A stretch of DNA of 63,208 nt, filler included, from Reclinomonas americana ATCC 50394 (Eukaryota), in the NCBI GenBank assembly GCA_048213135.1. It is 7 parts of 4 records of this genome, joined end to end, with 100 filler letters (N's around TTAATTAATTAA, not from the genome) between each part and the next. Parts side by side here need not be neighbours in the genome. Positions count along the whole stretch, not along the records: positions 56,664 to 63,208 come from PS015308.1; 6 more parts are not named here. One strand, 5' to 3'. The notes beneath the pieces are model-generated. The model ran no database searches. It saw only the letters and a program-made list of their open reading frames with translations, and was not told where the DNA came from. Positions 59,221 to 60,603 of this stretch are shown piece by piece. The number at the start of each line of letters is the position of its first letter. The stretch's first letter is position 1. The translations under genes and the position numbers were made by a program.

Positions 59221-60603
59221 ATGGAGGAGGGAAGCCAGGCCGTGGCTGCAGACAGTCAGCGCGCGGGGCGGGCACGCTCACGCATCACTCGCCTGTTGTC
59301 TCACATGTTTCCGCGCGCCACTCTCCTCACCCGCCTGTTGCGGTCGCCACACGATGCACAGTCGAGTGCTACCAATGCACATGGTGCGCCTGTTGTCTCT
59401 CCTGCCCATGATGAATCACCGTCACTTTGCTGACTGGACCGATTGCATGCAGAGAGAGTGATGGCCAAGGCGGTAGTGGAAGAGGACGAGGTGGGTGAAG
59501 GAGATGAGGAGGAGGGTCTGATCACACTCCAAAAGGCTCTGCAGCAGTCGATGGCGAGTGAGGCGACGCCGAAAGTTATCGATCGGCGACTCATTGGCTT
59601 CCCGCGCACCGTGGCCAACGCCACGCTCTTCTCGCGCGTCATGGAGCAGGTGTACCAGGAGGAGAAGCAAGTCATCCCCGACTCGGGTTCGTTAGTTTCA
59701 TCAGTCTTTATGCATCCCTCTTTCTCTCCTTCCACCCATGCCTGCCTCAAACCCGCAGACTTGGTGGAGATGCCCAAGGGCGAGCCTCCGTCGCTCACCG
59801 AGTTGTTTGGCGACGAGTTCCCGTCGGGCCACGTGTGCGTCGTCGGCCCCACCGGATCCGGCAAGAGTACGATCGTCCGCGGTATCTTGTGTGCGCTCTG
59901 CGACCGTCACACGCTGTCGATCTACTCGCTGGAGTTTCCCGTGGAGGTCAACCTCAACACGCACGGTCTCTTTCACGTGTGCCAGATCGACATGTTTCAG
60001 CAGGTGGCCGGTCGGCAGCGATCGCTGCACGAGGTCGCCAACGCGCTTCTGCATCACGATCCCGACCTGCTGTACTTTGGCGAGCTGCGCAACAAGACCG
60101 ACTTTGAGACGGCGACGAGTGTGGCGCTGAGTGGAGTGGCGTGCATCAGCACGGGCCATGCGCACTCGCCCATGGACCTGCTGGAGCGTTTGCGCGCGAT
60201 GAACATTGACCTGTCGACGCAGTTCCGCGCCTTTCGCTGCATCGTCGGCGTGAAGCGCGTGCCCATTCTGTGCGACGTGTGCAAGCGCACGGTGGTGTTC
60301 CAGGGTTCACCGTCGGATAATCGCGCCCTCCGACTCTTCTTCATGTATCGCACGGTGACGTTGAGTCGGGTGCGTCGACGGCAGACGCAGCCTCGTGTGT
60401 GCATGCCGGGCACGGGCACGAACTGTTCGGCGTGCACCGGTGGCTACACGCACAATCACACCATCTACGAGTTTCTGCGCATCCACCCGACAGACACGCT
60501 GGAGTCGCTGCGGCGCAATCACACGTACACGACGGAGGAGACGTTGCTGGACCTCATCATGCAAGGCAAGGTCAATCCACTGTATCTGGAGAGCCTGCTT
60601 TGA
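59221..60603 (+). CDS. GspE/PilB-family secretion ATPase, C-terminal (nucleotide-binding + Zn) half
   Basis: Walker A GPTGSGKST, Asp box SLEFPVE, Walker B DPDLLYFGELRN, His box SGVACISTGHA, tetra-Cys LCDVCK..CSACTGGY. Putative in-frame intron 59687-59758; start could be 59221 or 59461. Confidence 0.88.

Follow-up and report, generated by a model that had tools for sequence, protein, structure and literature searches.

We are highly confident that the locus at 59221-60603 of the DNA analysed here (a stretch of 63,208 nucleotides, called the window below) is a nuclear gene with introns that encodes the GspE of Reclinomonas americana, or of a strain nearly identical to it, and that this GspE belongs to the mitochondrial system derived from a type II secretion system (miT2SS). 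The supplements of Horvathova et al. 2021 (PMC8134430; this and later statements on that paper cover the portions of its text and supplements at hand) contain a 22-residue peptide of the ORF product P0001 at two places, namely in the alignment row "RaGspE" of Supplementary Fig. 4 and under the heading "GspE", row "Reclinomonas americana", in Supplementary Data 1. The published RaGspE is 413 aa long and agrees with our model in its start and in both exon junctions, and the window product differs from it at five of the first 400 of its 413 residues, as compared by eye. All five substitutions (S/P, K/N, V/A, M/T and I/V) are located at residues 48-97 (window 59221-59560), and from "RRLIGFP" onward the two proteins are identical over the 400 residues compared. 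Because five residues differ, the strain or the assembly is not the same as the published one, and the N-terminal differences suggest another strain, allele or assembly version. The near-identity also makes the host a jakobid, within the lineages in which the miT2SS is known; jakobids are one of four lineages with the system (PMC8134430; the 2023 review PMC10128026, also consulted in portions). The first-pass annotation had considered that the protein would be new if its host lay outside the known lineages; since the host is a jakobid, that novelty falls away, and the gene is already known, R. americana GspE having been published in 2021 (PMC8134430).

The joined gene model has three exons, which give 1242 nt after splicing and a protein of 413 aa with one terminal stop (Table 1). 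In the ORF scan, the ORF at 59443-60603 yields P0001 from its in-frame ATG, and a shorter ORF lies upstream in the same frame. The frame from 59221 meets the stop at 59431-59433, so that a second intron is needed to join the upstream ORF, which in the alignment encodes an N-terminal motif conserved in the homologues. In alignment A1, which holds the window protein and 17 eukaryote-type homologues, the stretch of intron 2 forms a 24-residue insert that is empty in 16 of the 17 other rows and filled by two residues in the remaining one. Its removal gives IPDS/DLVEMPKG (the slash marks the junction), as in the homologues, and the published R. americana protein reads likewise; across intron 1 the published protein reads NAH/ERVMA. 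The two predicted GT-AG introns are thus supported by the homologues and by the published protein. The first-pass annotation had proposed the 72-nt pyrimidine-rich intron, which the model keeps, and had missed the one at 59384-59452. Both introns begin with GTNCG and finish with GCAG. Retention of intron 2 would add 24 residues, and retention of intron 1 would stop translation at 59431; if it started again at 59461, the product would lack the N-terminal tag described below.

Table 1. Features of the GspE locus and other located genes (positions along the window)
Feature	Coordinates	Strand	Details
UBA1 (ubiquitin-activating enzyme E1) gene	22560-25682	-	split over several ORFs
Last ORF of upstream gene	58774-59097	+	stop 123 nt before GspE ATG; DIL match E 0.02, 15.4 bits (cut-off 24)
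GspE gene	59221-60603	+	three exons
Shorter ORF	59221-59433	+	ends at stop 59431-59433
Exon 1	59221-59383	+	start ATG, Arg-rich N-terminus, conserved nonapeptide; same first residues as published R. americana GspE
PTS2-like nonapeptide RITRLLSHM (RIx5HM)	59281-59307	+	exon 1, residues 21-29; Leu at position 5
Intron 1	59384-59452	+	69 nt, GTGCGCCT...GCATGCAG, GT..AG; holds in-frame stop 59431-59433
ORF of P0001	59443-60603	+	in-frame ATG 59461, 380 aa
Exon 2	59453-59686	+	acidic stretch, followed by the first part of the stretch conserved across eukaryotic GspE
Intron 2	59687-59758	+	72 nt, GTTCGTTA...ACCCGCAG, GT..AG, 72% pyrimidine, in frame, stop-free
Exon 3	59759-60603	+	ATPase (CTE) domain, two CxxC pairs; stop TGA 60601-60603
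Walker A GPTGSGKST	59845-59871	+	from translation
Asp-box-like EFPVE	59932-59946	+	from translation
Walker-B-like DPDLLYFGELR	60058-60090	+	from translation
His-box-like SGVACISTGH	60130-60159	+	from translation
CxxC pairs	60271-60282 and 60424-60435	+	from translation
Ankyrin-repeat and PH-domain gene	60634-62616	-	Pfam Ank_2 3.8e-20, PH 8.4e-12; convergent with GspE

The closest relatives of the protein are likewise eukaryotic. The best 22 of 380 database matches are eukaryote-type GspE sequences (E = 6e-134 to 2.4e-72, 45-68% identity) and include Acrasis kona, Willaertia magna, Naegleria fowleri, N. lovaniensis, Malawimonas jakobiformis, Gefionella okellyi and Andalucia godoyi; the A. godoyi match is labelled "mitochondrial T2SS GspE" and the Malawimonas match is named GspE. 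The next match after these 22 drops to E = 1e-12 and about 34% identity, and the named matches further down are bacterial. In a careful maximum-likelihood tree of the 22 eukaryote-type rows and 8 bacterial rows, the latter picked from 98 lower matches, the eukaryotic GspE proteins form a clade with 100/100 support, and a branch of length 5 divides them from the 8 bacterial sequences. The window protein belongs to this clade, not to the bacteria; its own branch, 0.7 long, arises from a basal polytomy that also includes Andalucia, the malawimonads and a clade of heterolobosean type. The protein is not placed with Andalucia, and the polytomy neither supports nor rejects a jakobid position. Protein P0003, a EukProt entry, matches by eye in its first residues the Neovahlkampfia damariscottae GspE row in the part of Supplementary Data 1 at hand.

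The other miT2SS GspE proteins (Naegleria, Acrasis, Willaertia, Neovahlkampfia, Malawimonas, Gefionella and Andalucia) share with the window protein the CTE-only architecture, two CxxC pairs, an N-terminal nonapeptide and the clade-specific residues E-x-PVEV, HDPD, LSGV and STGHA. The window protein is 57% to 64% identical with those of the named miT2SS species, and its N-terminal extension is shorter than that of the heteroloboseans. These comparisons and the match with RaGspE support the initial view that the gene encodes a component of a T2SS-derived mitochondrial system, corresponding to the C-terminal half of GspE; the name used for it in PMC8134430 is GspE, not "GspEC".

According to that paper, eukaryotic GspE consists of the CTE domain only, and its N2E-like parts exist as proteins of their own, GspEN2A and GspEN2B, of which GspEN2A is proposed as the partner of GspE. 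Supplementary Data 1 lists GspD, GspF, GspG, GspEL, GspEN2A/B and GspDN2/3 for R. americana. The N. gruberi proteome column assigns NgGspE, GspEN2A, GspEN2B, GspF and GspG1 to the mitochondrion ("M"), the Ng and Go GspE-GFP fusions localise to mitochondria in yeast, and GoGspE self-interacts in BACTH (PMC8134430). On the strength of the bacterial family and of published work on other species, R. americana GspE would be imported into the mitochondrion and would form an ATPase hexamer at the inner membrane, on its matrix side, where it probably pairs with a separate N2E-like GspEN2A. Via GspF it would power the assembly of the GspG pseudopilus, which would push cargo through the outer-membrane GspD pore. 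By homology, and from the results on the N. gruberi and G. okellyi proteins, the window protein is expected to drive the miT2SS as its ATPase motor. As to its import, the first 45 residues of the spliced model hold 8 R/K and 4 D/E, and the acidic stretch follows after them; published predictions for R. americana GspE are TargetP 1.1 mTP 0.784, TargetP 2.0 OTHER, MitoFates yes 0.586 and MitoProt 0.12 (PMC8134430). The original remark that the acidic N-terminus is not a typical presequence is therefore fair in part: the predictors disagree, but the acidic stretch comes later and the start is rich in basic residues.

Exon 1 also encodes a nonapeptide, RITRLLSHM, that resembles a peroxisomal PTS2 signal. 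Canonical PTS2 is [RK]-[LVI]-x5-[HQ]-[LAF], located within the first 40 residues and with a hydrophobic position 5, and RIx5HM is listed as a likely non-canonical PTS2 that is reported in oomycete PTS2 proteins (PMC7710942, in the portions at hand). RITRLLSHM fits the canonical form except at position 9, where M lies outside [LAF]. Two patterns were scored anywhere in the protein and two within the first 50 residues. A strict Petriv-type pattern, scored anywhere, is found in 8/22 eukaryote-type GspE (at positions 10-46), 1/98 bacterial T2SSE and 4/120 UBA1, and a relaxed pattern, also scored anywhere and fitted to the data after the fact, in 15/22, 2/98 and 8/120, respectively; the seven GspE rows without a tag match are 212-347 aa long, shorter than most others. 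Within the first 50 residues, the canonical PTS2 pattern is found in 5/22 eukaryote-type GspE, 2/98 bacterial T2SSE and 0/120 UBA1, and an extended pattern in 12/22, 2/98 and 0/120. Because the GspE rows are homologous, all these tag counts measure conservation and not independent events.

The tag is also present on other subunits. By eye, R-V-x5-H-[VIL] is seen close to the N-terminus of GspEL, GspEN2A, GspEN2B and GspF in the R. americana entries of Supplementary Data 1 at hand (PMC8134430), so that the pattern in this species, GspE included, reads R-[VI]-x5-H-[MVIL]. GspF and GspG of several other species carry the tag as well, and no tag was seen by eye in the R. americana GspG, GspD, GspDN2 and GspDN3 entries of the same material. 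This presence on non-homologous subunits is harder to explain by common descent than the counts among the GspE rows. The system co-occurs with Gcp1-3, three proteins paralogous to Pex7, the receptor for PTS2 (PMC8134430). We tentatively propose, as a possibility that we consider rather doubtful at present, that the nonapeptide of exon 1 is one copy of a system-wide, PTS2-derived address tag, with Gcp1-3 as the receptors that would read it and direct or put together the subunits of the inner membrane and the matrix side. In the portions at hand, PMC8134430 mentions PTS2 only in the sentence on Gcp1-3 and Pex7, and the review PMC10128026 mentions neither PTS2 nor Pex7. A full-text literature search returned PMC8134430 and unrelated reviews, and the text returned holds no description of the tag and no link between it and Gcp1-3.

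The same signal could mean that an active GspE is not purely mitochondrial, and that Pex7 sends part or all of it to peroxisomes. The position of RIx5HM at residues 21-29, its Leu at position 5 and the occurrence of the same variant in oomycete PTS2 proteins (PMC7710942) agree with such a destination; in addition, the tag-bearing GspEL clusters with peroxisomal markers in N. gruberi, and PMC8134430 itself sees hints of a peroxisome link. However, GspEL alone is marked peroxisomal in the N. gruberi column of that paper, whereas GspE, GspEN2A, GspEN2B, GspF and GspG1 are all among the proteins marked "M". The Met at position 9 also departs from the canonical signal. Yeast has a working PTS2 pathway. 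Even so, the Ng and Go GspE-GFP fusions went to mitochondria in that host (PMC8134430). Peroxisomal delivery of the window protein is thus very unlikely, and a mitochondrial GspE remains our preferred reading.

Pfam PF00437 (T2SSE) matches P0001 with E = 4.4e-23 (82 bits, cut-off 24.9) over residues 121-345, corresponding to profile positions 141-326 of 370, and the Pfam search found no N-terminal PF05157 domain in P0001, whereas most bacterial matches have one. The architecture is thus shown to be the CTE domain only, without N1E or N2E. The NCBIfam GspE, ComGA, PilB and PilT models match the same core (positions 217-411 of 465 in the GspE model), and the GspE models outscore pilT_fam, but the bacterial GspE equivalogs NF007755 and TIGR02533 stay far below their curated cut-offs (71.5 vs 617 bits and 56.3 vs 630 bits). 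Sequence matches in the PDB comprise PilT, GspE/EpsE and PilB/PilF. With bacterial GspE/EpsE (PDB 1p9r, 4pht) and PilB, the window protein shares a RecA-like CTE, Walker A, the catalytic Glu and the tetracysteine site; it differs from bacterial GspE/PilB in the absence of N1E/N2E, an identity of about 30%, the Asp box EFPVE and the low equivalog scores. The best PDB match is PilT (PDB 6ojx; E = 2.4e-13, residues 107-244), and it is limited to the nucleotide-binding core. To our knowledge, PilT is without a tetracysteine region.

All GspE/PilB motifs are found in order in the translation (59845-60435), as the first-pass annotation had read them, and its statement that the N1/N2 domain is absent was borne out by the Pfam search. 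GPTGSGKST, DPDLLYFGELR, STGH and the two CxxC pairs sit in conserved columns of A1. The deviant EFPVE, HHDPD and SGV (the last where PilT has TGH) are indeed present in the PilT alignment, but the invariant columns of A1 include E158, P160-V163, H199-D202 and S224-V226, so these residues mark the whole eukaryotic clade and not the window gene alone. Because the Asp box and the His box deviate from the bacterial consensus, the ATPase activity of the window GspE can only be assumed. These deviations could also be taken as a sign that the gene encodes GspEL, the catalytically dead GspE-like paralogue, which like the window protein is CTE-derived and bears the same kind of N-terminal nonapeptide. 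In GspEL, however, Walker A, the Asp box and Walker B are no longer present (PMC8134430), whereas the window protein keeps them, with a Glu in the Walker-B-like motif, together with both CxxC pairs. Furthermore, its sequence stands under the heading GspE in the portion of Supplementary Data 1 at hand, where R. americana GspEL has another sequence. It is thus extremely improbable that the gene is GspEL rather than an active GspE.

The surroundings of this GspE gene are eukaryotic. The DNA is free of gaps from 56664 to the window end, and with no N run after 56663, GspE is physically continuous with its neighbours; the contiguity that the first reading claimed holds for this part, but the whole window contains 26 N runs (5068 N), the last at 56620-56663. 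Blocks of 44 N, 12 bases and 44 N occur at 17275-17374, 30359-30458, 50672-50771, 52908-53007, 54920-55019 and 56564-56663, beside larger gaps, and their make-up is that of filler between joined parts. As for the two eukaryotic neighbours named at first, the ankyrin-PH gene is solid, but the DIL assignment of the upstream gene is weak, as its match falls short of the cut-off (Table 1), and the profile search found no Pfam family at 1e-3 for 58744-59094. The stops of the convergent GspE and ankyrin-PH genes are 30 nt apart (60604-60633), a spacing so close that the 3' ends of the two genes have to be either overlapping or very short. GC3 is 0.79 in the GspE ORF vs 0.72 in the ankyrin-PH neighbour. 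Elsewhere, the window carries fragments of UBA1, CNOT1, POT1, apyrase, a kinase and a macro-domain protein. The best database matches of a 422-aa UBA1 ORF (fungi, fish) are 30-38% identical and are uninformative as to the host's identity; with no E1 above 38%, the host is without a close relative among the proteins searched.

An origin by bacterial contamination, or by a recent, isolated horizontal acquisition of a bacterial GspE/PilB gene, has nothing more in its favour than the bacterial origin of the family, and it is refuted by the gap between the best bacterial identity (about 34%, E = 1e-12) and that of the eukaryotic clade (45-68%), the 100/100 split of the two clades, the two predicted introns, the GC3 matching that of the neighbour, the gap-free continuity with the ankyrin-PH gene in a window that also holds CNOT1 and UBA1 genes, and scores far below all NCBIfam bacterial equivalog cut-offs (71.5 vs 617 bits). 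The first-pass annotation had likewise judged contamination unlikely, and the phylogeny it had proposed places the protein among the eukaryotic GspE sequences.

Among 160 window ORFs (79 of the 88 ORFs of at least 170 aa and 81 shorter or repeated ones), a scan that relies on Pfam models and would miss families without one detected no secretin, T2SSF or T2SSG family; GspE is thus not clustered with recognisable Gsp genes among the ORFs scanned. Three peptides from the neighbours (ankyrin-PH and the upstream ORFs) are absent from the portions of the PMC8134430 supplements at hand, which speaks weakly against the neighbours being Gcp proteins, as the entries were compared up to 400 characters and the upstream peptide is C-terminal. 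In one pond metagenome (0.07 of words shared), two 151-nt contigs match exon 3 at 59805-59955 and 60118-60268 with 3 differences each. Over 58000-62700, no contig of this metagenome bridges to a flanking gene or an intron, and a third contig contributes only scraps of 25 and 20 nt. Judged from these two contigs, a very close relative may live in a pond-type habitat.

The gene itself is nothing new, and its host lineage is already known for the system. Its practical value is in the genomic gene model, with three exons, both intron positions and a compact convergent neighbourhood, and a further value is in the strain-level variation, which is confined to the N-terminal region. If the Pex7-like Gcp1-3 do read the tag, this would give a function to three of the sixteen unexplained Gcp proteins and would show that a mitochondrial machine had co-opted a family of peroxisomal receptors.
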